Positions 38,188 through 64,000 of a stretch of 64,000 bases of DNA are shown here, in pieces. The position numbers and the translations under genes were made by a program. The number at the start of each line of letters is the position of its first letter. The stretch's first letter is position 1. This DNA is from an uncultured Gammaproteobacteria bacterium (lineage in GTDB: Bacteria > Patescibacteriota > Microgenomatia > UBA12405): contig CAYUVY010000001.1 of the NCBI GenBank assembly GCA_964448465.1, forward strand, positions 25,196 to 89,195, written 5' to 3'. Under the pieces are notes generated by a model. That model was given only the letters and a program-made list of their open reading frames with translations, did no database searches and had not been told where the DNA came from.

Positions 38188-39395
38188 TGACTGCCTTTTC
38201 CTCTTTAATGTTTTGGCACAACATAAAAGTTATCTTTTTAACGGTTATCTTCGGGCTTATTATCTTAAAGATACTTAACAAATATCTTAACCAAAAGAGA
38301 ATTTTTATAGGGTTATTTTTTGTTCTATTACTTATTCCATTTGTTCAAACTAAAACAAACCTCATTCAGTATCGCCCCTTAGAAGAAAATCGCAAAAAAT
38401 TAACCCTCCCTACCGGTAACCCTGTTATTGAAATTTTCAACAACCAAAAAACATACACCTTGGCTTATGAAAAATACTTCAACGATAACTATGGTCTGCG
38501 AGATTTATTTATTCGTGTAAAAAACCAAATCGACTACTCACTATTTAGGGTATCTGACGAAGTATTAATAGGAAAAGATAATTGGCTTTTTTACAAAAGT
38601 GTTGTTGAGAAGGAACAAGTATATATGGAACAGCAAAGCAATACACAATTATTAGCCATACAAGACAAAATGATTTCATTGAATAACTATTTTAAAAAGA
38701 GGGGTGTGTTGTTTGTGGTAATGCCAATACCTTTAAAAAACTCTATATATCCAGAGTTGTATATTAATAGAACAACAAACAGACCTAGTCCAACAAAATT
38801 CGAACGATTTATTGCATTTCTCCAAACACACCCTGAAATTAAATCTATAGACGCAAGATCTATTTTGCTTAACAATAAAGATAAATACCAACTTTTTTAT
38901 AAAACAGATTTTCATTGGACAGATACTGCAGCATATTTAGTCAACAAAGATACTGTTGAATCAATAAATAAATGGGTACACGGAACAACCAAGTGGAGCT
39001 ACTCACTTCAAACCCAAGAAGATAGTAGTTTTACAGGTGGACAAACTGATTCACTTGCAACACTTGTCTCACCTAGAGAAGTGGCAATTCATGTAATAAA
39101 CTCACCAAAAGGCTCTACACCTGACCCTAAAACACCAAAACCTTTCTTATACTACTTTAAATCTTCACTTACAAATCAGAAGTTATTGCCAAAAACCTTG
39201 CTTATTGGCAATTCATACTTTTTAAACATGCTTAACACTGGTTTTGTTGATCACTTTGATGAATTTTTGATGATCCATGGTAATGACATGGATAAAATAC
39301 CAGAATCAATCCCTAAAGATGTAAAAGTGGTAATATTTCAAATGATAGAAGTAGACCTGTTAAAAAATTTTTTGTTCAGTAAATCTAACACATAA
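38187..39395 (+). CDS. AlgJ/AlgX/DltD-like SGNH-type O-acyltransferase partner (N-terminal membrane anchor)
   Basis: N-terminal TM helix, then the KTDFHWTDTAAY motif (DxHW is typical of the AlgJ/AlgX family). Immediately downstream of the MBOAT gene, with the ATG overlapping its stop (TAATG). Confidence 0.55.
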   Translation: MTAFSSLMFWHNIKVIFLTVIFGLIILKILNKYLNQKRIFIGLFFVLLLIPFVQTKTNLIQYRPLEENRKKLTLPTGNPVIEIFNNQKTYTLAYEKYFNDNYGLRDLFIRVKNQIDYSLFRVSDEVLIGKDNWLFYKSVVEKEQVYMEQQSNTQLLAIQDKMISLNNYFKKRGVLFVVMPIPLKNSIYPELYINRTTNRPSPTKFERFIAFLQTHPEIKSIDARSILLNNKDKYQLFYKTDFHWTDTAAYLVNKDTVESINKWVHGTTKWSYSLQTQEDSSFTGGQTDSLATLVSPREVAIHVINSPKGSTPDPKTPKPFLYYFKSSLTNQKLLPKTLLIGNSYFLNMLNTGFVDHFDEFLMIHGNDMDKIPESIPKDVKVVIFQMIEVDLLKNFLFSKSNT

Positions 39396-49077: not shown

Positions 49078-50007
49078 CTATCTAACAAGCAGCAACGGCA
49101 GGCCTACTAATTGGCTTATTAAACCAATTACCCCACTAACTCCAGATACCAACACGGCTTTGTGAGGATCCACTCCAACTTGAGAAAAAAAGTATCCATA
49201 CAATAATTCCCTAGCTCCCCAGCCAGAAAGTGAAATTGGCAGTACCAAGATAAAAGAAATTATTGGGAAAATTGAGTAAATACTGGCCAAACTCATATTT
49301 GCCTGCAAAATAACTGCCAAAAAATAATTTGGTAAGATCCAAACTAGTTGAGCAAAAATAGAGATAACATATGCCCCTGCAACCCTGGATAAACCCTCTT
49401 GATTTAATACTTCTTCTATAGATACTATTTTTTGTAACCACTTAATTTTTAGGGCATATTTTTTTAAATCCAATAAATACGCCAAGCCAATTGCCACCCA
49501 CATCCCCACAAACAACCCCAGACAGATAAAAACAATATTGGCAGGCAAGCTTAGTCCTACAACTTTTGCCAAAACAATCCCAATAAAGGCCACGGTTACC
49601 AATGAAACTAGTCCTACTAATCTATCGGCCACCATGGACATGGCCAGTTGTGATTTTTTCAGTTCCGGAAAACTTTTATGTAGTATTAACCACTTGGTCA
49701 CATCCCCACTTAAACTGCCAGGTAAAAACATTCCATAAAAACCCGCCATCGCATTGGCCTTCCAAATTAGCCACAGTCTTTTTGGATCTATCTTTCCCCA
49801 TAACAACCAAGACCAGCGCACTCCCGCCAAAACTCCTACCACTTGAGAATAAATAACAAACATTGGTATTGTCCACCAGGGAATTAAACTAATTTGACCA
49901 ATAATTTCACTAAAACTTATTTTCGTGGAAAGTAAATACACACAACCCAACGTAAACACTAGTCGGAAAGGCAAGGAAGTTATAATTCTCTTAAGCCATG
50001 TCATCAT
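49078..50007 (-). CDS. UPF0104 / LPG-synthase-TM-like flippase-like membrane protein
   Basis: 309 aa with about 8 TM segments. N-terminus LVFTLGCVYLLSTKISFSEI...WWTIPMFVIYSQVVGVLAGVRWSWLL resembles the lysylphosphatidylglycerol synthase TM (flippase-like) domain. Assignment is by architecture. Confidence 0.5.
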   Translation of the reverse strand: MMTWLKRIITSLPFRLVFTLGCVYLLSTKISFSEIIGQISLIPWWTIPMFVIYSQVVGVLAGVRWSWLLWGKIDPKRLWLIWKANAMAGFYGMFLPGSLSGDVTKWLILHKSFPELKKSQLAMSMVADRLVGLVSLVTVAFIGIVLAKVVGLSLPANIVFICLGLFVGMWVAIGLAYLLDLKKYALKIKWLQKIVSIEEVLNQEGLSRVAGAYVISIFAQLVWILPNYFLAVILQANMSLASIYSIFPIISFILVLPISLSGWGARELLYGYFFSQVGVDPHKAVLVSGVSGVIGLISQLVGLPLLLVR

Positions 50008-51081
50008 CTTTATATTCTATCCTATGTTTGTCTCATATTTTCCCCCCGGCTGTCGACGGTGGTTCCCAGATTATTTTCAACCTAGGTAAGCAACTAGAAA
50101 AACATGGTCACCAGGTCACCTATTTCGCAGGTCCAGGTCAGAGTACCGACGATTATCTAAACTCATTTTCTAGATATCTAAAATTTATCCCCATTCTTGG
50201 ACCTATTCTAAAAATCGGACCAATTTTCTCACCCCTAACTTTATTCAAACTAACCAGACTTAAGCCTCAAATTATCTTAGCTGGACCCTTACCCACCACC
50301 ATTGCCCTATATGCATATCTACTTAAGCTGCTAACTGGAGCCAAATTAATTCTTGTGCCTTGCTACCATCCTACTGATCCAAGTTTTAATAACCCAATCT
50401 TTACCTATATTCTCCGAAACTCCAATTTAGTGATAACTCTAACTAACTACGAAACTTACTTCAAACTTCAAACTGTCAAGTTCTACCTCCTGGTATTAAT
50501 GCTGATTTGATACTAAAAAGTAAGCCTAGCTTTCCCAAAACTAAAAATGTTTTGTTTCTTGGTAATTTTGCCGCTCACAAACAAATAATCTTGCTAATTC
50601 AAGCTTTTTGTAAATTAAAAGCACCCTGTACTCTCACTATTGCGGGCAAAAAAACCTTGTATTATCCTGAAATTCAAAAATATCTCCACAACTTACCCAA
50701 ACCAATTCAAACCAAAATTACTTTCATCGACATGGGCTATAATCCTGATTTACTTGTTAACTTGTTAAACTCTTGTACTATCATGTGCCTTCCTTCTTCT
50801 CAAGAAAGCTTTGTATAGTTTTTGCCGAAGCTTGGGCCAGAGGTAAGCCAGTAGTGGGTACCGATATTCCCGCAGTTACCGAACTTTTCCAACAAACCAA
50901 AGGTGGCACAACCTTTAAAAATCTTGATTCCCAATCGCTAACTCAAACCCTAGAAAAACTATTAACAAACCCACAATTCTGCCAAAAACTTGGTCAAAAT
51001 GGTCATAAGTATGTACGACAACAACTCACTTGGGATAAAATTGGTAACCAACTATGCGCTATTTTGCCATCCTTATTTTAA
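49998..51081 (+). pseudogene. Frameshifted GT4 glycosyltransferase, split over three frames (49998-50510, 50507-50818, 50773-51081)
   Basis: Three consecutive ORFs encode the N-domain (VDGGSQIIFNLGKQLEKHGHQV), the middle (PPGINADLILKSKPSFPKTKNVLFLGNF, readable only in the second frame) and the C-domain (FAEAWARGKPVVGTDIPAV) of one GT4. Single-base frame changes are near 50465 and 50813. Confidence 0.6.
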
Positions 51082-51503
51082 TCTTAATCACCATTAGCCT
51101 AATTTACACCAGAAACAAACCTTCCAAACTGTCTACAATTAACCTAACTTTAGGCAATAATACTTATTCTATTGAACTGGCTAGTAGTCTTTTAGAAAAA
51201 ACTAAAGGTCTTGGTGGGCGCACCAGTCTCTGCTCCACCTGTGGCATGCTTTTTATCTATAATTCCGAGGGTGTCTATCCCTTTTGGATGAAAGATACTT
51301 TAATCCCCTTAGACATGCTTTGGCTCGATTCTAGTGGTAAAATTGTTGCGATTCATACTGCCCAACCCGAGCCAGGAGTCTCTGATTTTCAACTAAAAAA
51401 TTATTCTAACTCAACTCCCGCTAAATACGTTCTAGAAATTAATGCCCTCCAGTCACAAAAACTAAATCTACGAGTAGGGGACACAATACTCATAAAATTA
51501 TGA
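51054..51503 (+). CDS. DUF192-family protein (N-terminal signal/anchor)
   Basis: MLFIYNSEGVYPFWMKDTLIPLDMLWLDSSGKIVAI matches the DUF192 (COG1430) core pattern. N-terminal hydrophobic segment. Confidence 0.55.
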   Translation: MRYFAILILILITISLIYTRNKPSKLSTINLTLGNNTYSIELASSLLEKTKGLGGRTSLCSTCGMLFIYNSEGVYPFWMKDTLIPLDMLWLDSSGKIVAIHTAQPEPGVSDFQLKNYSNSTPAKYVLEINALQSQKLNLRVGDTILIKL

Positions 51504-52408
51504 CCGGTATTTCTGTCATTATTCCCAACTTAAACGGACAAAAATTTTTATCTGATTGTCTAAGTTCTATTCTTGTTGCTCAAAAAAATCTAGATCTAGA
51601 CTTACAAATTATTCTTGTGGACAATGGTTCTACCGACCAAAGTCTAGAAATTTTTGATCAACTTACCAAAAATTACCAAACCATAAAAATCCGCAACTCC
51701 AAAAATCTTGGCTTTGCCCAGGCTGTTAACCAGGGGATAGCTGCAAGTTCGTACGACTGGGTGCACGTCTGCAACAACGATTTAAAACTTCATCCCGAAT
51801 GGTATAAAAAATTATTACCTTATTTAAGACCAGAATATGCCTGTCTAGCTGGTACCGTTTTAAACCTAACAGGGAATGAATATGAAAGTACAGGTTTAAC
51901 TTTCTTTGATTATGGTAAATGCCAAAATATTAAAAATCACCAGAAGTTTGATAGAACAAAACTACCCAGCCAACCCGAGATAATCTGGGGGGCCAATGCA
52001 GCTTGCACACTCTATTACAAACCAGTTTTAAGACATTTAGGTGGCTTTGATGCACGTTTTTTTGCTTACGAAGAAGATGTGGATTTGGCTTATCGCTTGA
52101 ACCAGCAAAAATTTACAACTCTTTATGTTCCCCTAGCAATTTCTTACCATCTAGGTGGTGGAACCAGTAATAAAATGGGTATTTTTAGGCAAAAAATGGA
52201 TGCCAAAAACTGGTGGCTTTTAATCTTAAAAAATTATTCTCTTGCTAAAATTATCCAAAACCTCCCCAAACTTCTCCTAGAACGTTTTATTAACTTAGCC
52301 AGTCTATATCAAGCCATTATCAAAACCTATGGCTGGCGCTCGATTTACCTAATACCCATGCAAACCCTTTGGCTCAAGTTTTCTATACTATATAACCTGC
52401 TAAAATAA
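51500..52408 (+). CDS. Glycosyltransferase family 2 (GT2)
   Basis: ISVIIPNLNGQKFLSDCLSSIL...VDNGSTDQS and YEEDVDLAYR motifs. Confidence 0.75.
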   Translation: MTGISVIIPNLNGQKFLSDCLSSILVAQKNLDLDLQIILVDNGSTDQSLEIFDQLTKNYQTIKIRNSKNLGFAQAVNQGIAASSYDWVHVCNNDLKLHPEWYKKLLPYLRPEYACLAGTVLNLTGNEYESTGLTFFDYGKCQNIKNHQKFDRTKLPSQPEIIWGANAACTLYYKPVLRHLGGFDARFFAYEEDVDLAYRLNQQKFTTLYVPLAISYHLGGGTSNKMGIFRQKMDAKNWWLLILKNYSLAKIIQNLPKLLLERFINLASLYQAIIKTYGWRSIYLIPMQTLWLKFSILYNLLK

Positions 52409-52412
52409 ATAA

Positions 52413-53525
52413 ATGATCATCGGCCTAGATATTTCTTCCATACCCTATGGCACTGGAGTTAGTAACTACACTCAAAATTTAGTCCTCAACCTTCTACAAA
52501 ACGACACCAAAAATACTTACAAACTATTTTTCTCTTCTTTGCGCCAAAACCTACCTGCAGATTTTCTCCAAGAACTAAAAAAATATAAAAACTACAAGTT
52601 ATATTTATACAGATTCCCACCTACCATCCTGTCTATTCTTTGGAACAAACTACATATTTTATCCATTGAACATTTAATTGGCCAATGTGACATTTTTCAT
52701 TGTAGCGACTGGACCCAACCCCCCACTCAACAAGCTAAAACCACAACCACTATTCACGACCTAACTCCCTTTATACAGCCAAACTGGCACCACCCATTGG
52801 TTGTCTCTACGCACCGTCAAAAAATGTCCCAAGCCATTAAACATTGCGACCACTATATTTGTGTTTCATATAACAGCCAAACTGATTTACACAAACTATT
52901 TCCACAAACTATCGACAAATCTAGTGTAATATACGAGGCTTGTGAAGATATTTATTCACCCAAATTAATCAAGACTTCCAAACATCCCTTTGGCAATGTT
53001 CCTTATTTTTTGGCCCAAGGTACTCGCGAGCCACGAAAAAATTTAACTCGTACCATCCAGGCTTTTGTCCGTTTTAAAAAAGAGAACCCTAATAATAAAT
53101 CTATTTTAGCCGTGGCAGGCAAATATGGCTGGGGAGAGGACTTAGAAATCCAGCAACCCCAGTTTATTAAAATACTTGGCTACGTTAGTGATGAATATTT
53201 ACAACAACTCCATGTTCATGCTTTAGCTTTAGTTTGTGTTTCTCTCTACGAAGGTTTTGGCCTACCCCTAGTCAAAAGTTTTGCCTGTGGAGTTCCAGTA
53301 ATTACCGGCAACCTGTCTTCACTTCCCGAAATCACCAAAGATGCAGGCCTTATCGTCAACCCATATTCTACCGAAGCCATTAAGACTGCTTTTGTAAACA
53401 TCTCCAAAACCAAAACCAGAGAGGACTTGGCCAAAAAAGCCCTACTCAGAGCCAAAGATTTTAGCTGGCAGACAACCGCCTTAAAAACGCTTAAACTATA
53501 CCAACAACTATGCGCATCGGAATAG
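52413..53525 (+). CDS. Glycosyltransferase family 4 (GT4)
   Basis: EGFGLPLVKSFACGVPVITGNLSSLPEI. Confidence 0.8.
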   Translation: MIIGLDISSIPYGTGVSNYTQNLVLNLLQNDTKNTYKLFFSSLRQNLPADFLQELKKYKNYKLYLYRFPPTILSILWNKLHILSIEHLIGQCDIFHCSDWTQPPTQQAKTTTTIHDLTPFIQPNWHHPLVVSTHRQKMSQAIKHCDHYICVSYNSQTDLHKLFPQTIDKSSVIYEACEDIYSPKLIKTSKHPFGNVPYFLAQGTREPRKNLTRTIQAFVRFKKENPNNKSILAVAGKYGWGEDLEIQQPQFIKILGYVSDEYLQQLHVHALALVCVSLYEGFGLPLVKSFACGVPVITGNLSSLPEITKDAGLIVNPYSTEAIKTAFVNISKTKTREDLAKKALLRAKDFSWQTTALKTLKLYQQLCASE

Positions 53526-54577
53526 ACGGCAACGAAGCCAACATTTCTCAAAAAGTAGGTGTTGGCTTGTTTGCTTACCAACTTTTGTTGCAGCTTTACC
53601 ACCAAAAAACCGATAATCAGTATTTTATTTTTCTCAAGTCAACTCCAGGCAAAGATCTGCCTCCCGAAAAAGCTAACTGGCATTATCTAGTCTTTGGGCC
53701 CCAAAAACTATGGACACGCTTTGCCCTACCCTTCAAGCTCTATTTTGGTTCACCCAGACTTGATTTATTTTTTTCTCCCAGTCATTACACTCCGCTTTTT
53801 TGTCCTGTTCCCAAGCTAGCCGCCATTATGGACTTGGGGTATCTGGACACGCCAGAACAATTTACTAAAAAGGACTACTACCAACTTACCCAGTGGACTA
53901 AAGAGTCTATAAAAACTTGTGCCCATCTAATTGCTATTTCCGAGTTTACCAAACAAGAAATTATCACTCGTTTTCACTATAACCCAAATAAAATAACCGT
54001 GGTTTACCCTAGCGTTACTCCACCAAATAAAATCAATAAAAACCTAATTTCTAAGTGGAATTTACAAAACACGCCCTATTTTCTCTATTTGGGCACTCTC
54101 AAACCGAGTAAAAATATTCCTTTCTTAATTAACACTTTTTCACAATATAATGGTCTAGAAAAATTAGTTATCGCCGGTAAAAAAGGCTGGCTTTACAACA
54201 GTATCTTTGAGCTTGTTAAATCCTTAAAGCTTGAAAACAAAATTGTCTTTACTGACTATATAACTGAACCCGAAAAATGGGCTTTATTAAAACAGGCCAA
54301 GGCTCTATGTATACCTTCGCTTTACGAAGGTTTTGGCATACCAGCCCTCGAAGCACTATTAATAGGTACACCGGTAATTGCAAGTTTTTGTGGATCCTTA
54401 CCTGAAATAGTTGGGTCTTGTGGCCATTTACTGGATTCTAACGATACCCAATCCTGGCTTTTAGCCTTAAAACAACCTCAAAGAGTTTTGGCCCCAGATA
54501 TCGGCAAATTGAACCTAAAGTTTGGCTGGCCAGACAACCTAATTCGCTTAAAAACTGCCTTTTTGAAAGTTATTTAG
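53510..54577 (+). CDS. Glycosyltransferase family 4 (GT4)
   Basis: EGFGIPALEALLIGTPVIASFCGSLPEIVG. Confidence 0.8.
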   Translation: MRIGIDGNEANISQKVGVGLFAYQLLLQLYHQKTDNQYFIFLKSTPGKDLPPEKANWHYLVFGPQKLWTRFALPFKLYFGSPRLDLFFSPSHYTPLFCPVPKLAAIMDLGYLDTPEQFTKKDYYQLTQWTKESIKTCAHLIAISEFTKQEIITRFHYNPNKITVVYPSVTPPNKINKNLISKWNLQNTPYFLYLGTLKPSKNIPFLINTFSQYNGLEKLVIAGKKGWLYNSIFELVKSLKLENKIVFTDYITEPEKWALLKQAKALCIPSLYEGFGIPALEALLIGTPVIASFCGSLPEIVGSCGHLLDSNDTQSWLLALKQPQRVLAPDIGKLNLKFGWPDNLIRLKTAFLKVI

Positions 54578-54589
54578 GTATAATTAAGC

Positions 54590-55186
54590 ATGTTTACAGA
54601 TAAAGATGGTAAATCACTCCCTTTAGACACTGCTGTAATGAAAATTTTCAACCGTTTTGCTACGTATTTTCTGGAATTTGAACTTATGCTTTTGCGCTGG
54701 ACTGGCAATATACCCTCCCACTTATTCCGTCGCCTTATTTACCAGCTTGCCGGTATGAACCTTACAACGTCTACCACCATTCACATGTGGGCCAACTTCT
54801 TTCAACCCCGAGGTATCACCATAGGGCAAGACTCTGTTATTGGTGATCATTGTTTTTTAGATGGTCGCGCCCCGCTTAATATTGGTAATCACGTAGATAT
54901 TGCCTCTCAAGTTCTCATCTACAACGATGAACACGATGTTCATTCCGAGACTTTTACCAATCACTTTGGTCCTGTCACTATTCACGATTATGTTTTTATC
55001 GGACCACGCGCCATAATTTTACCTGAAGTCACTATCGGCAGGGGAGCCGTAGTTGCAGCTGGGGCTGTAGTCACCAAAGATATACCAGAATTTGAAATTT
55101 GGGGTGGTGTGCCAGCCAAAAAAATAGGAGAGAGAACCAACAAAAATCCACATTACCGCCTGGGTCGAGTCATGCTCTTTCAATAA
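54590..55186 (+). CDS. Hexapeptide-repeat acetyltransferase (WcaF/CysE-like)
   Basis: IGDHCFLDGRAPLNIGNHVDIASQVLIY...IGPRAIILPEVTIGRGAVVAAGAVVTKDIPEFEIWGGVPAKKI. Confidence 0.75.
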   Translation: MFTDKDGKSLPLDTAVMKIFNRFATYFLEFELMLLRWTGNIPSHLFRRLIYQLAGMNLTTSTTIHMWANFFQPRGITIGQDSVIGDHCFLDGRAPLNIGNHVDIASQVLIYNDEHDVHSETFTNHFGPVTIHDYVFIGPRAIILPEVTIGRGAVVAAGAVVTKDIPEFEIWGGVPAKKIGERTNKNPHYRLGRVMLFQ

Positions 55187-55187
55187 C

Positions 55188-55724
55188 ATGTTAGTCAAAA
55201 ACATCCTAAAAATAGGTATAATCGCATTTAATCTGGCAGCTTTTGTTTATTTTCTTATTCCCTTTCCAAATTTACCCGATCTGCCCAATTCTCTGCGTTC
55301 AGTCGAACCAGGTGATACTATCCAACTTAAAAATGTCAAAGCTTACTACACCAATTCCAACCGTAATGCCGTCACAGGTTTTTACCTAAAAAACACCCCT
55401 CACCCCTTTATTTACAAAATCAACCACCCACCCGAGTACGCACGACAAGTTATCAAGGCTACTACTCAAACTTATTACCTAGAAGAATATGTTTTACCTT
55501 TTAAAGGTTCCTTCTTTGTCAATGGCTACGAATGGAAAAATGATGTTTTTACTAAACCCGATGCTCGCGGTCAAAACAAACTCCTGGTGGGTACTCAACT
55601 TTTTGACGCCAAGATAACCCTTAAGTGGATACCTGCCATTTTTCCAATAAATTACTTTATTTTTTTATTAACCCAAGTCTTAATATTTTTCGCGCTTAAA
55701 AAAATCCCTGCCATATTTAAATGA
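55188..55724 (+). CDS. Hypothetical bitopic membrane protein (TM at both termini, central extracytoplasmic domain)
   Basis: ORF only. Hydrophobic N-terminus (IGIIAFNLAAFVYFLIPF) and C-terminus (INYFIFLLTQVLIFFAL). Confidence 0.4.
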   Translation: MLVKNILKIGIIAFNLAAFVYFLIPFPNLPDLPNSLRSVEPGDTIQLKNVKAYYTNSNRNAVTGFYLKNTPHPFIYKINHPPEYARQVIKATTQTYYLEEYVLPFKGSFFVNGYEWKNDVFTKPDARGQNKLLVGTQLFDAKITLKWIPAIFPINYFIFLLTQVLIFFALKKIPAIFK

Positions 55725-56611
55725 AACCAGTCTTAAGCATTATTATCGTTTCCTACAACACCTCCAAGTTAACTCTGGCTTGTCTTAAATCAATACTCGC
55801 CGACAAGGGTTTGCTTTTTGGAGCCAAGTCCAAAGTTGAAACCAGTATTCCCACCGAAATTATAGTAGTCGACAATGCTTCAAAGGACGACACCATAAAA
55901 AAATTATTGAACTTTCCACAAATAAAAATATTAAAAAACAAAACAAACCTTGGCTTTGGTCCAGCCAATAACCAAGGCCTAAAAGCTAGTAGTGGAGAAT
56001 ATATCTTGTTTCTCAATAGCGATACTTTAATTAATAATTCTGCCATCAGCCAATCCTTAACCTATTTTTGCACCCATCCAGAACTGGCCTGTCTTACTAC
56101 CCAACTTTTAAATTCCGACGGAAGCATTCAGGAGTGTGGAGGGTACTTCCCCAACCTACTAAACACTTTTACTTGGTGCTCCCACATGGATGACCTGCCT
56201 TGGATTAACAAGTTTATCCCAGCCATTCATCCCCACACTCCCAACTTTTATCTTCACGATGATTTTTACAAACATGACCAATATCTAGATTGGGTCAAAG
56301 GTGCCTACTTTTTAACTCGCAAAACAATTCTAGACAAAGTTGGCGGTTTTGACCCAAAGATATTTATGTATGCCGAAGACATAGACTTAAGCTATCGCAT
56401 CAAAAATCAATTTCCAAACTTAAAAAATTATCTTTATTCCACCGCCAAAGTCACCCACCTTGGGGGTGGCTCGGCAAAAGTTAACAGTACAAAGTTAAAT
56501 AAAGAGCGAGAGGGTATTAAATATTTTTATAAAAAACATCAACCCAACCAACTTCCAATAATCCAATTATTATTAGTCATTAACCAAATTCTTGGTATAT
56601 TTTTTAAATGA
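55721..56611 (+). CDS. Glycosyltransferase family 2 (GT2)
   Basis: LSIIIVSYNTSKLTLACLKSI...VDNASKDDT and YAEDIDLSYR motifs. ATGA overlap with the upstream gene. Confidence 0.75.
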   Translation: MKPVLSIIIVSYNTSKLTLACLKSILADKGLLFGAKSKVETSIPTEIIVVDNASKDDTIKKLLNFPQIKILKNKTNLGFGPANNQGLKASSGEYILFLNSDTLINNSAISQSLTYFCTHPELACLTTQLLNSDGSIQECGGYFPNLLNTFTWCSHMDDLPWINKFIPAIHPHTPNFYLHDDFYKHDQYLDWVKGAYFLTRKTILDKVGGFDPKIFMYAEDIDLSYRIKNQFPNLKNYLYSTAKVTHLGGGSAKVNSTKLNKEREGIKYFYKKHQPNQLPIIQLLLVINQILGIFFK

Positions 56612-58020
56612 ATATTTTTCGTGTTTTAGTCTCCATCTTGCTAATTTTTATTCCACTTTATCCTAAGTTTCCACTTTTTGACGCCTTAAATACTTATGTT
56701 AACTTTCGTTTAGACGATGTTTTAGTTGGTATTTCTGTCTTAATTTGGTTTATCTTTCAATTAAAACACAACTTTCCTGTGTTAAAAGAAAAAATAAGTT
56801 GGCTTTTTATCTTATTTTTTGCTTCTCTGGGGCTCAGTTTTCTTTCCGGAGTTTTTATCCATCAAACCAATTTTAATAATATTTATCTCCTGCACACTCT
56901 GCGAAAAATTGAATACATCAGTCTCTTTTTCATTACTATCCAAGGTATTCGTACCAAGCAGGACTTTAAATATCTCTATTTATTCACTTGTTTAGCTGCG
57001 GTCTTGGTTAACGTATACGGTGTTGGTCAAAAATATTACAACTTTCCGGTAGTCTCTACTATGAACGAGGAGTTCTCTAAAGGGATACTTTTAACCATTT
57101 CTGCTTGGACTCGCATTAGTTCCACTTTTGCCGGTCACTACGATCTGGCCATTTATGCCTCCGTAGTTTTGATCATCATTGGTGGAACCATGTTTTTTAT
57201 CCCCAAAAAATGGCTGATTTTGACTATCCCCACTTGGCTCTCTACCTATTATGTCCTAACCCTCACCGCCTCCAGAGTCTCTATCTTTGCACTCTTGGGT
57301 GGATTTACCTTATGTTTAATATTTCTACGTAAATATTTTTGGCTTATTCCCCTTTGGATTTTGGTTATTTTAAGTATACGAACATCGGATGACCTAAGTC
57401 ACCGTCTTGCTGCAACCTTTACCCTTGTTAAATTACCAAAAATTACTATCTTTCAGACCAGGCCAAAATCAACTCCTATCCCAACACCTGTTGTGCTTCC
57501 AACCCCAGCTCCAATTGCCGTTGCTCCTATTGTCACCAAACCAAAACCCATTATCCTAGCCACTCCCACACCGCTTGCCACCCCTGTAAGAGCCAGGCCG
57601 ACCGAAGGCTATCCACCTGTGGACTTAGATGCTGGCGTAGCCAGATCAGGCGAAATACGTTTCAACGTAGAATGGCCAAGAGCCATTAATGCCTTTCTCA
57701 TAAGTCCCCTGATTGGTAATTCTCCGGGATCTATGGGCCTAGCAACCGACAACGAATACTTGCGTCTGGCTGGTGAAATTGGCCTCATTGGTTCTTTTCT
57801 TTTTTACTCCATACTTGCCTGGTTTGTTTACCAAACTTTTTTGACTTCTCAAAAACATAATAAATATAAATACATCTTTTTTTGTGCCATGCTTACAATG
57901 TTAATAAACGCCATTTTTATTGATGCTTTTTCTGCCTCTAAAACAGCCTACCTCTTCTGGATTATGATGGCAGCTTATTATCAATGTCTAAAACTATGGG
58001 AAAATTCCAAACAATTCTAG
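56608..58020 (+). CDS. Wzy_C-family membrane protein (O-antigen ligase / O-oligosaccharyltransferase / polymerase-like) with Pro/Thr-rich linker
   Basis: Polytopic. C-terminal region ISPLIGNSPGSMGLATDNEYLRLAGEIGLIGSFLF resembles the Wzy_C conserved block (GxGxG...[H]NxYL..L.E.G..G). It is preceded by a low-complexity TPIPTPVVLPTPAPIAVAPIVTKPKPIILATPTPLATP segment. Confidence 0.6.
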   Translation: MNIFRVLVSILLIFIPLYPKFPLFDALNTYVNFRLDDVLVGISVLIWFIFQLKHNFPVLKEKISWLFILFFASLGLSFLSGVFIHQTNFNNIYLLHTLRKIEYISLFFITIQGIRTKQDFKYLYLFTCLAAVLVNVYGVGQKYYNFPVVSTMNEEFSKGILLTISAWTRISSTFAGHYDLAIYASVVLIIIGGTMFFIPKKWLILTIPTWLSTYYVLTLTASRVSIFALLGGFTLCLIFLRKYFWLIPLWILVILSIRTSDDLSHRLAATFTLVKLPKITIFQTRPKSTPIPTPVVLPTPAPIAVAPIVTKPKPIILATPTPLATPVRARPTEGYPPVDLDAGVARSGEIRFNVEWPRAINAFLISPLIGNSPGSMGLATDNEYLRLAGEIGLIGSFLFYSILAWFVYQTFLTSQKHNKYKYIFFCAMLTMLINAIFIDAFSASKTAYLFWIMMAAYYQCLKLWENSKQF

Positions 58021-59378
58021 TAACAATACTTCTCATTCTCGGTTTCCTCGTTCGTCTATATCGAATTGATCAACCAGTGGCCGACTGGCATTCCTTTCGT
58101 CAAGCTGACACTGCCTCGGTCACTAAAAACATTTATCTTGGCAAAGGCACAATCCTTGTTCCCACTTATCACGATTTTGGTGATGTGGCTTCAGGTAAAT
58201 GGAACCCCAAAGGCTATCGTATGGTGGAATTTCCCATCTACAACCAAATATCTGCAACCTTAGCCAAAGCTCTACCGTTCTTTAGTTTGGATAAAACTTC
58301 CAGACTAGTTAATATTAGCTTTTGGATCATTGCTAGTCTCTGCGCTTGGCTTCTCTTTAAGTCCAAATTTGGAGCTACCTCGGCTTTTTTTGGCTTAGTC
58401 GCATACTTGTTTTTACCCTACGGTATCTATTACAGTCGCGTAATCTTACCCGACCCTTTTGCTTTAAGTATGATGGTCATCAGTATCTATCTATACAGCC
58501 GTGATCAGAAAATATTTTCCTCCATATTTTTTATTTTTAGTCTTCTTGCCAAACCCTATGTCATTCTTATTTCACTTCCGCTTTTTTTCTTTTTTGCCAA
58601 AGACAGAAATATCTTCAAATTAGGTTTTTTTGCTTTTATTTCTTGTTTGCCACTACTTGCTTGGCGTGTCTGGATCCTTCAGTTCCCCACTGGAGTTGCT
58701 AGCTACGACTGGCTCCTAAATGGCGGCGGTATTCGCTTTAGACCCAGTTGGTTTCGTTGGTTATTTTATGAACGACTAGGGCTATTAATCACCGGTGCTA
58801 TCCCAGCAGCCCTGCTATATCTAGGCTTACTAAAAAAACCTCTTGGGTCGCTATTAGCTTGGTCTGGGATCTTGGTCTATTTTTCCATTATCGCTCGTGG
58901 CAATGTTCAACATGATTACTATCAAGTTTTAGTATTTTTTAGTCTATGTTTTTTACTTGCTTCTTCATTTTCTGTTCTTACTACCGTACTACCGTACTAC
59001 AGTTCTAAAGTTCTATTATTCTTTTTGTTACTCGCCGGTATTGCTTTTAGTTGGTATAACATTAAAGGCTACTATCAAATTAACAACTCCCAAATGATTC
59101 AAGTGGCCGAGCAACTACGCACGCTAATTCCCTCAAATTCCATTCTTATTGCTCCCTATAATGGAGACACTGCGTATCTTTATCACGCAGGTTTTGACGG
59201 TTACCCCATCGAAATTTACAATTTTCCACAAATAATTGCCAGTCACCCGGGGTTACCTATATATCTTGCCTCCTTATCTAAAGATAACTACACCCATATC
59301 ATGCAAAAACAATTTAAGACCATCAAAGAAACGGACCAGCTAGTTCTTCTAGATATTCGCCAAACACTATCTCCATGA
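57984..59378 (+). CDS. Polytopic membrane protein, GT-C-like (ArnT/PMT-like) candidate
   Basis: 464 aa with more than 10 hydrophobic segments. N-terminal loop has RIDQPVADWHSFRQADTAS after the first TM helix. Assignment is by architecture. Confidence 0.5.
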   Translation: MSKTMGKFQTILVTILLILGFLVRLYRIDQPVADWHSFRQADTASVTKNIYLGKGTILVPTYHDFGDVASGKWNPKGYRMVEFPIYNQISATLAKALPFFSLDKTSRLVNISFWIIASLCAWLLFKSKFGATSAFFGLVAYLFLPYGIYYSRVILPDPFALSMMVISIYLYSRDQKIFSSIFFIFSLLAKPYVILISLPLFFFFAKDRNIFKLGFFAFISCLPLLAWRVWILQFPTGVASYDWLLNGGGIRFRPSWFRWLFYERLGLLITGAIPAALLYLGLLKKPLGSLLAWSGILVYFSIIARGNVQHDYYQVLVFFSLCFLLASSFSVLTTVLPYYSSKVLLFFLLLAGIAFSWYNIKGYYQINNSQMIQVAEQLRTLIPSNSILIAPYNGDTAYLYHAGFDGYPIEIYNFPQIIASHPGLPIYLASLSKDNYTHIMQKQFKTIKETDQLVLLDIRQTLSP

Positions 59379-60580
59379 CCAAAAAACGTGTTTTAATGAT
59401 TACTCCTTATCTTCCACGAACTTCTACTTCTGGTGGCCAAACCAGATCCTATTATCTTATCAAGCACATATCTAAACTAATTGACATTAGCTTAATCTGT
59501 TTTACACGTGACGAAGAAGGCTTAAAAGAGCTACAACCTTATTGTAAAAAAATTATTATTATTAAGCGTGGCAAAACTTGGGATTTAAAAAAAATACTGT
59601 CTACGGGCTTTGGACCTTACCCTTTTCTTATTACTAATTACATCAGTAACGAACTAAAAGAAAAGATTGCCCAGGAAATTGCCACCAATCAATACGACCT
59701 AATTCACACCGAATGCTTTTATCTGATGCCTAATATTCCCCAAACAAATTTACCAATTTTTTTGGTCGACCAAACTATCGAATATGCAGTTTATCAACAC
59801 TACACTGACACCCTCCGTGGCTTGATCAAGATATTAACCCCACTCTTGTATATTGATGTTTACAAACTAAAATACTGGGAAAATTACTATTGGAAACAAA
59901 CTAACTATTTGGCAGCAGTTTCCGAAGATGACAAAAAAGTTATTCAACAAGACACGGGACGAAAAGATGTCTTAGTCTTGCCAAACGGAGTAGACCAAAA
60001 TTATTTAAATACCAAACACTTAACCCCCAAAACCCCATATCCTTCCATTTTGTTTGGTATCTCCAACATGAAATGGATGCAAAACCGCGAAGGTGCTGAA
60101 CTTCTTTTAAAACAAGTCTGGCCCAAAATTCAACAAGCCATACCGGATTGTCGTTTATACATTATTGGCCGCAACGCCCCCCAAATCTTTCATGATTATG
60201 CCAACGACAACGTCATCATTGCCGAAGCCGAAACTGACGGCCAAGCCAACGACCCCGTCTCTTATTACCAGCGCTGTTGGCTCTTAGTTGCTCCTATCTT
60301 GAGCGGTAATGGGACTAGAACCAAATTCTTCGAAGCTATGGCCACAGGGCTGCCTATTTTGACAACCAAACAAGGTATGGAAGGCATACCTGCCAAAAAT
60401 GGCGAACACGCACATATTGTTCCCTTTAATCAACTTGTCAATCAAGCCATCAAATTACTAAAAAATAGTGGCCTTAGAAATCCTCTTGGTCAAAAAGCTA
60501 AAAAATTTGTGGAGTCTAATTACACTTGGGAAATTAGTGCCCAAAAACAGGTCAACATATATGAACAAATTACCAGATAA
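59375..60580 (+). CDS. Glycosyltransferase family 4 (GT4)
   Basis: RVLMITPYLPRTSTSGGQTRSYYLIKHIS N-domain, and a C-domain TKFFEAMATGLPILTTKQGMEG. Confidence 0.75.
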   Translation: MTKKRVLMITPYLPRTSTSGGQTRSYYLIKHISKLIDISLICFTRDEEGLKELQPYCKKIIIIKRGKTWDLKKILSTGFGPYPFLITNYISNELKEKIAQEIATNQYDLIHTECFYLMPNIPQTNLPIFLVDQTIEYAVYQHYTDTLRGLIKILTPLLYIDVYKLKYWENYYWKQTNYLAAVSEDDKKVIQQDTGRKDVLVLPNGVDQNYLNTKHLTPKTPYPSILFGISNMKWMQNREGAELLLKQVWPKIQQAIPDCRLYIIGRNAPQIFHDYANDNVIIAEAETDGQANDPVSYYQRCWLLVAPILSGNGTRTKFFEAMATGLPILTTKQGMEGIPAKNGEHAHIVPFNQLVNQAIKLLKNSGLRNPLGQKAKKFVESNYTWEISAQKQVNIYEQITR

Positions 60581-61502
60581 TAAACAACAAAGTTTTTTGT
60601 CTATTATCATTCTCAACTATAATTCAGGCAATTATTTACAAAAGTGTTTATCAAGTATTCAAAGTTCTAATTTGGATCCCAAATACTACGAAATTATTGT
60701 CGTAGACAATAATTCCACAGACGAAAGCATCTCTTTGGCAAAGCAATTAAAATTTGGTAACCTGAAATTTAAAATTTTATCTGATAATCAAGGCTTTGCT
60801 CACGGCAACAACCAAGGAGTCAAACTAATTTCTTCCAAGTCCACCCTGGTCATGTTTTTAAATCCAGACACAATTCTGGAAACCAACACCTTGTCCAAAC
60901 TTACAAATTATTTTGATGCAAACCCCCAAGTCTGTGCCGTTACCCCCCAGATAATTTTGGCCAAAACTGGTCAGCTACAACCAGAATGCCATCGCGGATT
61001 TCCCACCCCCTTACGATCTTTTTTTCACTTTTCCAAAATTGCCAAACTCTTTCCTGGCAGTTCATTTTTTAATGGATATTTTCAGGGCCATTTGAATACC
61101 AACACTGTTCACCCCGTAGAAGCAGGCGTCGGTGCTTGCCTGATCCTCCGTCGCAAAGTAGGGGATAATCTACGGTGGTGGGATGAAGACTACTTTATGT
61201 ATGGTGAAGACTTACAACTTAGCTGGGATTTGTGGCACCAGGGTTATAATTTATTTTTTGTACCAGACATCAAAATTACCCATTTTCAAGGCATATCCTC
61301 GGGTATTATCCAACATACAATTTCTACTACCAAAGCATCTTCTGAAACCAAAAAACGCTCCATTCTAGCCACTACTCAAGCTATGCGTGTCTTTTTTCAA
61401 AAAAATTTAGCTAGTAGTTATCCAAAAATATTTTCTAGTCTGATAATCCTTGCGATTAATTTGCTAGAGCATTATCGATTGGCCAAAATTCAGTATGTCT
61501 AA
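60561..61502 (+). CDS. Glycosyltransferase family 2 (GT2)
   Basis: LSIIILNYNSGNYLQKCLSSI...VDNNSTDES and YGEDLQLSWD motifs. The internal ATG at 60561 was chosen because the track start at 60468 overlaps the upstream gene by more than 100 bp. Confidence 0.75.
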   Translation: MNKLPDNKQQSFLSIIILNYNSGNYLQKCLSSIQSSNLDPKYYEIIVVDNNSTDESISLAKQLKFGNLKFKILSDNQGFAHGNNQGVKLISSKSTLVMFLNPDTILETNTLSKLTNYFDANPQVCAVTPQIILAKTGQLQPECHRGFPTPLRSFFHFSKIAKLFPGSSFFNGYFQGHLNTNTVHPVEAGVGACLILRRKVGDNLRWWDEDYFMYGEDLQLSWDLWHQGYNLFFVPDIKITHFQGISSGIIQHTISTTKASSETKKRSILATTQAMRVFFQKNLASSYPKIFSSLIILAINLLEHYRLAKIQYV

Positions 61503-62604
61503 AATTGCCATTGATGCCAGAAATTTTGGACCCAAACACACCGGTATCGGCAGATATGTTCAAAATCTCTTGGACCAAATTGCCCTAACTAAATTTGCTA
61601 AAAACAGTTCTATCTATTTAATTGTCAACAAAAATCAACAAAACGAAATTAGATCTCGCTATCAAGCTAAATTTAAATACCTCCCTACTACCATTGCTCA
61701 CTATTCTTTTGCAGAGCAACTTTTTCTGCCTTTTTTGCTGTATTCAAACAACTTTGACTTGGTTCACTTCACCCAGTTTAACAAACCTTTTTTGTATTTC
61801 AAAAAATCAGTTCTCACAATCCACGACCTAATTAAGCATCTTTCCAAAGGCCGTGAAACTACCACCAAAAGCCCATTGCTTTATTGGCCCAAATATCTTG
61901 CCTACAAACTACTTACTGACTTCAATATTCAACACAATCCCATTATTGTCCCCAGTAACTATTGGCGTAAGTATATTCTGGATAGTTACAAAATTAGTCC
62001 CAGTAAAATTATTACCACCTACGAGGCCCTCGATCCAACTTTTCTCAATAATAAAAAGATTATCGTCAATCCTGATAAATACCTCGTTTATACCGGTAAT
62101 GTTTACCCCCACAAAAATATCCAAATTGTTTTTCAGGCTTTACATAAATTACCAAACTTTAGGTTAAAAATAATTTGTGCCCGCAGTGTCTTTTTAGCTA
62201 GAATTGAAAATAAAATTAAACAACTAGGTATACAAAAACAAGTTGACATATTAGGCTACGTCCCCGACCAAGAATTTATAGATATTTATCAACATGCCAC
62301 TGCCCTGGTGCACCCATCCCTAATTGAGGGCTTTAGTTTAACCGGCCTTGAAGCCATGGCTCTGAATTGTCCTGTTATTTCCAGTAACGCCAGTTGTATG
62401 CCAGAAATTTATCAAGATAGTGTTTTGTACTTTGACCCAAAAAAACCAGACGATTTAATAGAAAAAATAAAAAGTTTGTCTGATAATCCAAAACTTAGGC
62501 ATGATTTAATCCAAAAAGGTAAACTTCAAATAAAAAAATACTCCTGGGCAACCACCGCCAAACAAACCACTGAATTTTATGACCACATCCTTCAGCAAAC
62601 TTAA
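61495..62604 (+). CDS. Glycosyltransferase family 4 (GT4)
   Basis: IEGFSLTGLEAMALNCPVISSNASCMPEI. Confidence 0.8.
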   Translation: MSKIAIDARNFGPKHTGIGRYVQNLLDQIALTKFAKNSSIYLIVNKNQQNEIRSRYQAKFKYLPTTIAHYSFAEQLFLPFLLYSNNFDLVHFTQFNKPFLYFKKSVLTIHDLIKHLSKGRETTTKSPLLYWPKYLAYKLLTDFNIQHNPIIVPSNYWRKYILDSYKISPSKIITTYEALDPTFLNNKKIIVNPDKYLVYTGNVYPHKNIQIVFQALHKLPNFRLKIICARSVFLARIENKIKQLGIQKQVDILGYVPDQEFIDIYQHATALVHPSLIEGFSLTGLEAMALNCPVISSNASCMPEIYQDSVLYFDPKKPDDLIEKIKSLSDNPKLRHDLIQKGKLQIKKYSWATTAKQTTEFYDHILQQT

Positions 62605-63640
62605 GGTAGCTATTTTTTACGATTGGCTTACTCGTTGGGGCGGAGCCGAACAGGTGCTACTCGACCTACTAAAACTATTTCCACAAGCCGAACTTATCAC
62701 TACAATTTATGACCCAACAAAAACTAGTTGGCTACCTAAAGGTCACAAAATAATTACCACTCCGTTATCTCACCCTAGCCTAGAGAAATTTCAAGGTTTA
62801 CTTTCCCCATTTTATCCAATTTTTTTGGAAAAGATTGACACCCGCTCTTATGACTTGGTTATAAGTTTAAGTTCCGTCTTTGGTCATTGCTTTTTAACTC
62901 AACCACAAACCAAATATATTCACTACTGCCTGACACCCAATCGTCATCTTTATCAAAAAAACAGGTTTAAACTATACCAACAGATAGATCAAATATTTGC
63001 CCAAAGACCTGATTATGTCCTTGCCACTAGTGTAGAAGTTGCCAAAAGAATTAAAAAATATCACCATCGCGACAGTCAAGTAATTTACCCAGGTATAGAT
63101 TCCAACTTTTTCAAACCAAATAAAAATATTAAAAAACAAAAACAATACTTAATAGTTTCAAGGTTAGTTCCGTATAAAAACATAGATCTTGCTATCCAGG
63201 CCTGTGGCCAACTAAACAAAAAGCTAATTATTGTTGGACAAGGAAGACTGGCCACATATCTAAAATCTCTTGCCACTAATTACAAAAATATATACTTTAA
63301 ATCCGACGTCCAGCCCGCAGAATTAAAAAAACTTTATCAACAATCTATCGCGCTTTTGGCTCCTCAAATTGAGGACTTTGGTCTAGCTATTGTCGAATCT
63401 CAAGCCTGTGGGACACCAGTTATTAGCTTAGCCCAAGGTGGAGCGCTAGAAACTGTAGAACACCAGCAAACTGGCTACCTTTATCCAGATTCAGACATTA
63501 ATAGTTTAAAAGAAGCTATTTTAAATTTTGAAAGATTAAAACTAAACTCAAAAATAATTCGCAACAATTCACTAAGATTCTCCAAACATATATTCATGCT
63601 AAAATTTAGACAATATCTAAACCAATGCTTAAAACCTTAG
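62579..63640 (+). CDS. Glycosyltransferase family 4 (GT4)
   Basis: EDFGLAIVESQACGTPVISLAQGGALETV. Confidence 0.8.
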   Translation: MTTSFSKLKVAIFYDWLTRWGGAEQVLLDLLKLFPQAELITTIYDPTKTSWLPKGHKIITTPLSHPSLEKFQGLLSPFYPIFLEKIDTRSYDLVISLSSVFGHCFLTQPQTKYIHYCLTPNRHLYQKNRFKLYQQIDQIFAQRPDYVLATSVEVAKRIKKYHHRDSQVIYPGIDSNFFKPNKNIKKQKQYLIVSRLVPYKNIDLAIQACGQLNKKLIIVGQGRLATYLKSLATNYKNIYFKSDVQPAELKKLYQQSIALLAPQIEDFGLAIVESQACGTPVISLAQGGALETVEHQQTGYLYPDSDINSLKEAILNFERLKLNSKIIRNNSLRFSKHIFMLKFRQYLNQCLKP

Positions 63641-64000
63641 ACACAATAATTTTTGAAACTTTTAAAAGAACTGTAGACATTCTGGGAGGAATTTTTTTAA
63701 TGATTCTTTTCTCACCCATTATTTTGGTTATCAGTCTTTTGGTTAAATTTACTTCCAAAGGCCCTATCTTTTTTAGTCAAATTAGAGTAGGCAAAGACAG
63801 TAAACCTTTTAAGATGTTCAAGTTTCGTACCATGTATACCGGAGACAACGACCTACGCCTTAAAAAATATCCGGAATTGTACAAAAAATACAAAAAGAAC
63901 GGCTGGAAACTATCTTTAAGAGAAGATCCACGACTTACCCAGATTGGTAAAATTATCCGCGCATTATCTCTTGATGAATTTCCTCAGTTTTACAATGTTC
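63625..64000 (+). CDS. Polyprenyl-phosphate hexose-1-phosphate transferase, small PglC/WbaP-C-terminal type (bacterial sugar transferase family); 3' end outside window
   Basis: Own translation from ATG 63625: MLKTLDTIIFETFKRTVDILGGIFLMILFSPIILVISLLVKFTSKGPIFFSQIRVGKDSKPFKMFKFRTMYTG... The KFRTM and GPIFF.Q.R.G motifs are hallmarks of the Bac_transf family. It is absent from the supplied track, presumably because no stop lies inside the window. Confidence 0.7.
   Translation, partial: MLKTLDTIIFETFKRTVDILGGIFLMILFSPIILVISLLVKFTSKGPIFFSQIRVGKDSKPFKMFKFRTMYTGDNDLRLKKYPELYKKYKKNGWKLSLREDPRLTQIGKIIRALSLDEFPQFYNV

Follow-up and report, generated by a model that had tools for sequence, protein, structure and literature searches.

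Introduction

Clan GT-C1 of the glycosyltransferases (GTs) comprises the SEDS (shape, elongation, division and sporulation) proteins, the O-antigen ligases and the inverting polysaccharide polymerases of families GT125-GT129 (Meitil et al. 2024, PMC10920833). It has been reported that, where the ligase has His313, SEDS proteins have an essential Asp and the inverting polymerases a conserved Asp/Glu (PMC10920833). The protein O-oligosaccharyltransferase PglL keeps the triad of the O-antigen ligase WaaL (as R224, R298 and H349) and adds the PglL_A motif PF15864 (Schulz et al. 2013, PMC3643930); the known PglL-type enzymes are Gram-negative, and pglL is often found beside the gene of its target protein (PMC3643930). 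Here, we analyzed a gene at 56608-58020 (plus strand) of a 64,000-nucleotide stretch of contig CAYUVY010000001.1 (assembly GCA_964448465.1, positions 25,196 to 89,195), which we call the window and which comes from a Candidatus Shapirobacteria bacterium of the Microgenomates, within the Candidate Phyla Radiation (CPR). An initial annotation had placed its product, referred to below as the Wzy_C-like protein, in the Wzy_C family, and preferred a PglL-like O-oligosaccharyltransferase as its role, with a Wzy polymerase as the second option. We propose, at what we regard as an even chance of being right, that the protein is an inverting Wzy-type (clan GT-C1-like) polymerase of a lineage-conserved surface heteropolysaccharide, with an undecaprenyl diphosphate (Und-PP)-linked oligosaccharide as donor. 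The evidence favours this reading over an O-oligosaccharyltransferase or another en bloc ligase. The roles of the functional residues of WaaL are taken throughout from PMC10920833 and PMC3643930.

Results

The Wzy_C-like protein is a divergent member of the Wzy_C/WaaL-fold superfamily (O-antigen ligase/polymerase). The intact protein has no Pfam match even at E<=10, and no NCBIfam model matches it with or without its low-complexity linker. When the linker is deleted, Wzy_C (PF04932) appears at 23.2 bits (E 6.4e-5; gathering threshold 31.7 bits), so that Pfam overlooks the domain because of the insert. PF04932 is carried by 80 of the 120 listed homologues (~50% identity), and two members of the wider family score above the Wzy_C threshold, P0281 with 50.0 bits and P0387 with 36.8 bits. 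PglL_A (PF15864) gave no match at E<=10 to either the intact or the linker-less protein. An AlphaFold2 model built with 26 homologues (mean predicted local distance difference test score, pLDDT, 73.7; predicted TM-score, pTM, 0.77) has 12 transmembrane (TM) helices. The initial annotation had suggested a comparison with the WaaL structure 7TPG, and 7TPG_B is the best solved match of the model in Foldseek (E 5.4e-4, probability 1.0, TM-scores 0.51/0.58), followed by the FtsW/SEDS structures 8p1u and 8bh1. With this WaaL/SEDS-like match, and with all of its invariant polar residues in predicted external loops, the protein has the features of a GT-C(B) fold. A HMMER search with the family profile against the sequences of the PDB returned nothing relevant, WaaL included, and Smith-Waterman alignments of the protein with 7TPG and with E. 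coli WaaL scored no better than shuffled sequences. The link to WaaL is therefore one of fold and motif and not of sequence similarity. Thus, the Wzy_C assignment stands at the level of the superfamily, through the Pfam scores of relatives and the 7TPG fold, and does not stand as a Pfam match of the intact protein.

The known WaaL residues were fixed by a phmmer alignment of E. coli WaaL with 7TPG (R215/R191, R288/R265 and H338/H313), and an 80-sequence linker-less family profile was used as the hhalign query. Against WaaL (probability 3.9%, E 0.011, 336 columns), TASR223 was paired with TQTR215, R266 with the equivalent of 7TPG R242, SGEIR351 with LGAR288 and LATD381-N382-E with VHLH338-N-E, and a G-x-x-G eleven residues downstream of D381 was also in register. 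Against FtsW/RodA, T380-D381 fell on T296-D297 of FtsW (probability 0.2%, E 0.29), and a Wzy_C-domain protein from Roseomonas has an Asp opposite D381 (probability 6.2%). These probabilities are low, and the alignments were therefore used for register only; the register agrees in all three. Judged by this register, R223, R266 and R351 appear to be kept equivalents of the Und-PP-binding Arg residues of WaaL. The replacement of the family's usual His by Asp, which the initial annotation remarked on but did not interpret, is confirmed: D381 lies opposite His338 of E. coli WaaL (His313 of 7TPG), with the neighbouring Asn in register.

These positions are strongly conserved. In 80 species-level orthologues D381, N382, R223, R266, R351, R34, D37, R99, N153 and E155 are invariant, as are R169, H177, D179, R386, E390, D439 and K445. 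Among 150 representatives of the wider family, D381 is found in 146 of the 147 aligned and R351 in 148 of 148, and the R266 position is Arg in 134. At the R223 position 145 have a basic residue, Arg in 130 of them and Lys in 15. The protein thus shows the combination described for inverting Wzy-type polymerases, an Asp/Glu at the position of the ligase His together with one or two conserved Arg. With respect to WaaL, the Arg equivalents R223 and R351 are present and the His position is the invariant Asp381; with respect to the R224/R298/H349 triad of PglL, both Arg are likewise present and the His is replaced by Asp. D381 therefore argues against an O-oligosaccharyltransferase and for the polymerase alternative. 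The Roseomonas protein mentioned above is the closest annotated relative in the plasmid collection (25% identity over 236 amino acids (aa); E 0.2 against the database, 1e-7 pairwise). It also has Asp at the D381 position and is encoded between a Wzc tyrosine autokinase and a flippase of the multidrug/oligosaccharidyl-lipid/polysaccharide (MOP) type, which is a classical Wzy context, and it gives an independent hint toward a polymerase.

The gene lies in an operon of ~17 genes that is syntenic in 80 of 80 species-level loci, with an almost fixed order. The order runs from (an LPG_synthase_TM/flippase-like gene on the opposite strand) through GT4, DUF192, GT2, GT4, GT4, a hexapeptide acetyltransferase, a 178-aa membrane protein and GT2 to the Wzy_C-like gene. 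It continues with (a GT-C/PMT-like gene, in 36 of 79 loci), GT4, GT2, GT4, GT4, (ManC), a small Bac_transf priming transferase and DUF4012. The 5' end of the Wzy_C-like gene overlaps the stop of the upstream GT2 gene by 4 nucleotides, and its 3' end overlaps the downstream GT-C-like gene by 37. With Bac_transf (202.8 bits) and nine GT2/GT4 genes syntenic in the 80 loci, the operon has the content of a Wzx/Wzy-pathway locus, its layout is that of a repeat-unit or lipid-linked-oligosaccharide pathway, and the Wzy_C-like protein is its only polymerase/ligase-type enzyme. The Wzy polymerase is the better supported of the two options given in the initial annotation. That annotation had also suggested looking for Ser/Thr-rich acceptor proteins nearby, and the conserved operon contains no pilin or S-layer-type gene.

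The initial annotation had also drawn attention to a Pro/Thr-rich segment in the large extracytoplasmic loop. The reading frame stands as annotated (ATG start, 470 aa), and both of the quoted strings were found in it, TPIPTPVVLPTPAPIAVAPIVTKPKPIILATPTPLATPVRARP at residues 288-330 and GNSPGSMG...TDNEYLRLAGEIGLIGSFLF at residues 370-399. The segment itself is real: residues 283-332 include 14 Pro and 9 Thr (23 of 50), compared with a Pro+Thr background of 9.8% in the other 62 open reading frames (ORFs) of the window (binomial 4.5e-11). Of 17,682 further 50-residue segments in the proteins of the window, not one reaches 23, the maximum being 16. An origin by expansion of a DNA repeat was ruled out, as the segment has no tandem repeat. 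In the AlphaFold2 model the linker is disordered and is located in the large TM9-TM10 loop. With the helix boundaries of the model, Lys+Arg amount to 10 in the 41 residues of the predicted cytoplasmic loops, compared with 4 in the 63 residues of the short external loops. This bias implies 12 TM helices with both termini inside and the linker outside, as in WaaL; model and charge distribution thus both support a linker in the extracytoplasmic catalytic loop.

The linker is not a constant feature of the family. In Shapirobacteria the insert has 50-86 aa (median 59) with a median of 20% Pro and 16% Thr, and its pairwise identity is 31%, whereas the remainder of the protein has 56%. Inserts found at this site across the wider family are mostly charged and span 30-148 aa (median 80), and the Pro+Thr fraction is >= 0.30 in just 17 of 148 members. 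Because length and composition vary across the family in this way, we regard the site as a tolerated insertion point in the catalytic loop, and the Pro/Thr composition as that of a Shapirobacteria-specific, probably disordered spacer and not a functional determinant. We also considered the possibility that the loop is a substrate of the adjacent PMT-like GT-C protein, and rejected it, since that gene is missing from 43 of 79 loci. The Pro+Thr fraction of the linker is 0.36 with the adjacent gene and 0.39 without it.

The coordinates of the protein's motifs and of the surrounding operon are listed in Table 1.

Table 1. Positions of the Wzy_C-like gene, its motifs and the genes of the conserved operon
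Feature	Position	Strand	Remarks
LPG_synthase_TM / flippase-like-domain protein	49078..50007	-	divergent, at operon head; candidate flippase
Operon, upstream half: GT4 (three ORFs here), DUF192, GT2, GT4, GT4, hexapeptide acetyltransferase, 178-aa membrane protein, GT2	49998..56611	+	
Wzy_C-like gene, Wzy_C / GT-C(B) fold	56608..58020	+	470 aa, ATG start; 12 TM
External loop 1 motif PLYPKFPL...YV.fRLDD, residues 16-37	56653..56718	+	R34, D37 invariant
TM5-TM6 external loop STMNEEFSKG...WTRISSTFAGHYD, residues 144-179	57037..57144	+	N153, E155, R169, H177, D179 invariant
TASR motif, R223	57265..57276	+	apparent equivalent of WaaL R215 (E. coli) / R191 (7TPG), Und-PP phosphate ligand
Short external helix SDDLSHRLAAT	57385..57417	+	R266 invariant; apparent equivalent of 7TPG R242
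Variable insertion, residues 271-338	57418..57621	+	predicted disordered; between R266 and R351 motifs
Pro/Thr-rich linker core, residues 283-332	57454-57603	+	by composition
External amphipathic helix DLDAGVARSGEIRFNVEWPRA	57622..57684	+	R351 invariant; apparent equivalent of WaaL R288 (E. coli) / R265 (7TPG)
Catalytic motif GNSPGSMGLATDNEYLRLAGEIGLIG	57715..57792	+	invariant D381-N382 replacing WaaL/PglL His-Asn, by profile alignments
Last external loop IDAFSASKTAY	57919..57951	+	D439, K445 invariant
GT-C(A)-like membrane protein	57984..59378	+	weak PMT_2 / AZOBR_p60025-like matches
Operon, downstream half: GT4 (stp1-like), GT2, GT4, GT4	59375..63640	+	
Small PglC-type phosphoglycosyl transferase (Bac_transf)	63625..64000	+	N-terminal part, runs off window
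DUF4012 protein	L001:17455-19410; L006:13067-13951		operon end; L006 is a contig of the window organism, just beyond window end

Some genes of the operon vary between loci. The LPG_synthase_TM gene lies upstream in nearly all loci of nearer relatives whose contig extends there, and is missing from the most divergent loci. Those divergent loci have, near the operon head, a conserved, unassigned protein of 408-422 aa with 9-11 TM helices (L072:356-1624, L078:1250-2476 and L082:165-1400), which has no sequence match in the PDB and might be an alternative flippase. The GT-C(A)-like gene follows the Wzy_C-like gene directly in fewer than half of the informative loci (36 of 79), and is thus accessory and not universal. 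In the window, the first GT4 gene of the operon (49998-51081) is split into three consecutive ORFs of 170, 103 and 102 aa. The same split is found in the independently assembled contigs L005 and L007, and the orthologues of other species are intact (402-417 aa), so that it looks like a real pseudogene or a frameshift in the population and not an assembly error.

The DUF4012 protein at the end of the operon is more conserved than the Wzy_C-like protein, with 62-85% identity across species. It has one N-terminal TM helix, compared with two in the polysaccharide co-polymerases (PCPs). A long stalk of helices follows, and the ectodomain is in part alpha/beta and in part beta-rich. It has no match among the PDB sequences. 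Its best Foldseek match is a weak one, 3OWQ (Listeria Lin1025; E 1e-3, TM-score 0.41), probably an LCP-type domain, which would suggest a wall-attachment enzyme, as a lead only. DUF4012 is enriched in CPR and Gram-positive bacteria and is present in a Bifidobacterium exopolysaccharide cluster (PMC6744442).

About one third of the listed representatives of the wider family are 700-1270 aa long, and in these the Wzy_C-like domain is fused to a second multi-TM domain that has 'DDF...FYRPL' motifs and belongs to no Pfam family. In the ~1000-aa relatives this domain forms a C-terminal extension of ~500 aa. We considered the neighbouring GT-C protein as its counterpart and rejected it; the extension instead resembles, in P0272, P0277 and P0321, the membrane part of the window ORF at 27209-28975 (BLAST E 1e-9 to 1e-4). 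This ORF, on the minus strand, encodes a 10-TM protein with C-terminal tetratricopeptide repeats. The fusion links two activities in other Microgenomates, that of the Wzy_C-like domain and that of the ORF 27209-28975-type membrane domain.

The homologues of the Wzy_C-like protein are named Candidatus Shapirobacteria, Woesebacteria, Microgenomates or Patescibacteria. Relatives occur in at least 566 species-level GTDB genomes, and a search of 1.84 billion cluster representatives gave 300 clusters at E<=1e-30. Many GTDB species-representative records with this CPR-specific operon bear the titles 'uncultured Gammaproteobacteria', Candidatus Methanoperedens, Bathyarchaeia or Nevskiaceae (L010, L011, L017, L036, L073, L081 and others). 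These records are probably mislabelled or contaminated metagenome-assembled genomes.

Essentially every one of the ~63 ORFs of the window was annotated, and the whole window is devoted to glycan biosynthesis. It contains ~26 GT2/GT4/GT17 genes, several GT-C-like membrane proteins, nucleotide-sugar enzymes and acetyl- and methyltransferases, and its 64 kb would be a large share of a genome expected at ~1 Mb or less. Five tandem paralogous membrane proteins of 507-574 aa, with ~8 TM helices each, are encoded at 2333-10311; two of them match PMT/PMT_2 (GT-C, protein O-mannosyltransferase-like) and one weakly matches Agl23. If proteins or glycans are O-glycosylated from polyprenyl-phosphate sugars, these paralogues are the obvious candidates for the task, and not the Wzy_C-like protein. 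An ATP-binding cassette (ABC)-2 permease and a TagH/Wzt-like ATPase at 28996-30529 represent a second, ABC transporter-dependent glycan pathway. At 36799-39395 an MBOAT acyltransferase is followed by an AlgX-like SGNH domain protein, a pairing that serves the extracytoplasmic O-acetylation of polysaccharides such as alginate or peptidoglycan. The ORF at 33991-34797 is a clear Glyco_transf_17 match (E 1.5e-30), a family that is uncommon in bacteria, its best-known representative being the bisecting GlcNAc transferase III of eukaryotes. Finally, a B12-binding radical S-adenosylmethionine enzyme, possibly a C-methyltransferase or sugar-modifying enzyme, lies among GT2 genes at 13940-15457.

Discussion

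Beyond the fold, residue conservation, topology and operon that we observed, we infer the chemistry, the acceptor, the flippase and the role of the DUF4012 protein as follows. The small PglC-like transferase encoded at the end of the operon would prime undecaprenyl phosphate, and the nine GT2/GT4 enzymes and the acetyltransferase would assemble a large repeat unit on it in the cytoplasm. The unit would then be flipped, possibly by the LPG_synthase_TM/flippase-like protein. On the external face, the Wzy_C-like protein would bind the Und-PP donor through R223, R266 and R351, and D381 may be the base, activating the acceptor hydroxyl on the incoming unit, so that the units would be joined into a surface heteropolysaccharide. 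The DUF4012 protein may serve as a co-polymerase or in wall attachment, and the PMT-like GT-C, where present, may decorate the product. If donor and acceptor are constant, then high conservation of sequence and locus is to be expected, as for the polymerase of the enterobacterial common antigen (ECA) and for SEDS (argument of PMC10920833).

Several observations weigh against a polymerase and should be considered together. The usual partners of Wzy are a Wzx flippase and a Wzz/PCP co-polymerase. No family match to MOP (Wzx, Polysacc_synt) or to Wzz/PCP was found among the ORFs of the window, a MOP probe of the 80 loci gave nothing at BLAST sensitivity, and no Wzz/PCP was recognised in their flanks; the unassigned multi-TM ORFs that we checked for Wzx in these loci are mostly PMT-like paralogues. 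In place of such partners there are only the LPG_synthase_TM/flippase-like protein and the DUF4012 protein. Nine GTs and a primer imply a unit of ~10 sugars, a size near the maximum for repeat units and one that is also compatible with the en bloc transfer of a single oligosaccharide. An identity of ~50% across hundreds of species is unusual for Wzy polymerases. As for the enzyme itself, the residue mapping is a consistent register and not a statistically strong alignment. The external loops of the model have pLDDT <50, so that the active-site geometry is unreadable, and the conserved TM5-TM6 loop (residues 144-179) is among the parts of low AlphaFold confidence. The top solved match is a ligase, and there is no polymerase of the clan among the PDB matches for comparison. 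Our data suggest that His as opposed to Asp/Glu at one position is a quick clue for sorting ligases and oligosaccharyltransferases from polymerases; this rule, however, is a correlation from one comparative study.

The most serious alternative, although we consider it unlikely, is an O-oligosaccharyltransferase. With Asp381 as its base, such an enzyme would move the finished oligosaccharide en bloc from Und-PP onto Ser/Thr of proteins that are secreted or surface-exposed, for example pilins or proteins anchored in the wall. Superfamily and topology are common to PglL, PilO and WaaL, the host would have no lipid A-core as acceptor, and nine GTs could make a defined oligosaccharide of ~10 sugars, as in general O-glycosylation systems. 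Such a fixed glycan would be consistent with the high conservation, and that neither Wzx nor Wzz was found in the window and the 80 loci also fits this alternative. Against these points stand the loss of the His of PglL and WaaL (H349/H338), the failure to detect PglL_A, and a conserved operon without a candidate acceptor gene, though pglL often adjoins its targets. The Pro/Thr linker, which the initial annotation had linked to O-glycosylation, is not evidence for it either, because its composition is lineage-specific, is not shared by the family as a whole and is unrelated to the adjacent PMT-like gene. On these grounds the preference for a PglL-like enzyme is not upheld. Gram-positive S-layer glycosylation loci do contain Wzy_C-type transferases (WsaB/WsfB). 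It is conceivable, with the same low probability, that the family represents an O-oligosaccharyltransferase, which would be the first from monoderm CPR bacteria. As an Asp-type enzyme it would differ in mechanism from the His-type PglL and WaaL and would decorate pili or wall-anchored proteins with a lineage-invariant glycan of ~10 sugars, and in that case the Pro/Thr loop of the protein might be glycosylated too. If this were true, ultra-small episymbionts would own a general protein O-glycosylation system in one of their most conserved operons.

More doubtful still is an en bloc ligase that acts on a non-protein acceptor, a membrane glycolipid or a cell-wall polymer, as a monoderm analogue of WaaL. 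Its glycan would be made by the operon or, a variant that we rate just as low, exported by the TagGH-like ABC transporter encoded elsewhere in the window. WaaL is the best structural match, Wzx and Wzz were not found here either, and the ABC-2/TagH-type exporter at 28996-30529 could belong to such a pathway. In addition, GT121 has been reported in Gram-positive bacteria, where wall attachment has been proposed (PMC10920833). However, the residue at the catalytic position is Asp and not His, and the ABC exporter lies outside the conserved operon and near the Wzy_C-like gene in only 1 of 80 loci. The attachment factor may instead be the DUF4012 protein, the weak lead described above.

A genuine WaaL that joins O-antigen to lipid A-core is excluded for practical purposes. 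Some orthologues are named 'O-antigen ligase family protein' by NCBI and the top PDB match is WaaL; however, CPR bacteria, the Microgenomates lineage included, are described as being without an outer membrane (PMC6744442), no lpx, Kdo (kds), waa or heptosyltransferase/GT9 gene is found among the ~63 annotated ORFs of the 64-kb window, the catalytic His is missing, and there is no sequence-level match to WaaL, either in the PDB with the family profile or with NCBIfam models. The initial annotation had considered this role unlikely if the host lacks an outer membrane, and the host and the gene content of the window bear it out.

Returning to the polymerase, we suggest that the wider interest of the locus lies in a strongly conserved glycan operon in genome-reduced CPR bacteria. 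CPR genomes are tiny, yet 64 contiguous kb are spent here on glycan synthesis, and the ~17-gene operon is almost unchanged among related species. This points to a conserved surface polysaccharide as its product, a kind of 'common antigen' of Shapirobacteria/Microgenomates that is probably important for attachment to a host or for the integrity of the envelope. It also follows from the analysis that 'O-antigen ligase' is an incorrect database label in these CPR organisms, and that a low-complexity insert is able to mask a domain from Pfam.

Comparison with known systems

The Wzy_C-like protein belongs to a known enzyme class, in which it is divergent and uncurated, and is not a new type of system. 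The ECA polymerase WzyE (GT120) is a functional analogy only: it also makes a lineage-invariant glycan and is also unusually conserved in sequence and locus. Unlike the protein described here, it is a member of clan GT-C2, whose enzymes are retaining, and of another Pfam family, and its partners are WzxE and WzzE, for which our locus has no recognisable counterparts. The SEDS proteins (FtsW/RodA, GT119) have an essential Asp at the equivalent position (D297 in FtsW), and are processive polymerases of Und-PP-linked units, which resembles the role we propose; our gene lies in a heteropolysaccharide locus and not in a cell-wall or division cluster, with no class B penicillin-binding protein as a partner nearby.

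PglL, PilO and PglS belong to the same Wzy_C superfamily, work with Und-PP-linked glycans at the external membrane face and can act without lipid A. The Wzy_C-like protein differs from them by Asp in place of His, by the undetected PF15864 and by the lack of a visible target gene. WaaL (GT121; 7TPG of Cupriavidus metallidurans and the E. coli enzyme) is similar in its 12 TM helices with both termini inside, in the Arg equivalents R191/R215, R242 and R265/R288, and in the motif x-[H/D]-N-x-h-h-x5-G-h-x-G, which is in register. In contrast to WaaL, our protein has an invariant Asp in place of the catalytic His313/His338, an insert of ~60 residues between the equivalents of R242 and R265 and a host presumably without a lipid A-core acceptor, and the two have no HMMER-detectable similarity.

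The inverting polymerases GT125-GT129 are closest to the protein, which is likened to them by their published description (PMC10920833) and not to one GT family. It differs from them in having no recognised Wzx/Wzz partner, in a conservation across species far above what is typical, and in the disordered insert of 50-86 aa, Pro/Thr-rich in Shapirobacteria, between the second and third Arg motifs. What it shares with these polymerases is a GT-C(B)-type fold of many TM helices, in which a long external loop lies close to the C-terminus, the conservation of one or two Arg for the diphosphate of Und-PP, a conserved acidic residue at the position of the ligase His, and a locus that encodes a priming phosphoglycosyl transferase together with several GTs.

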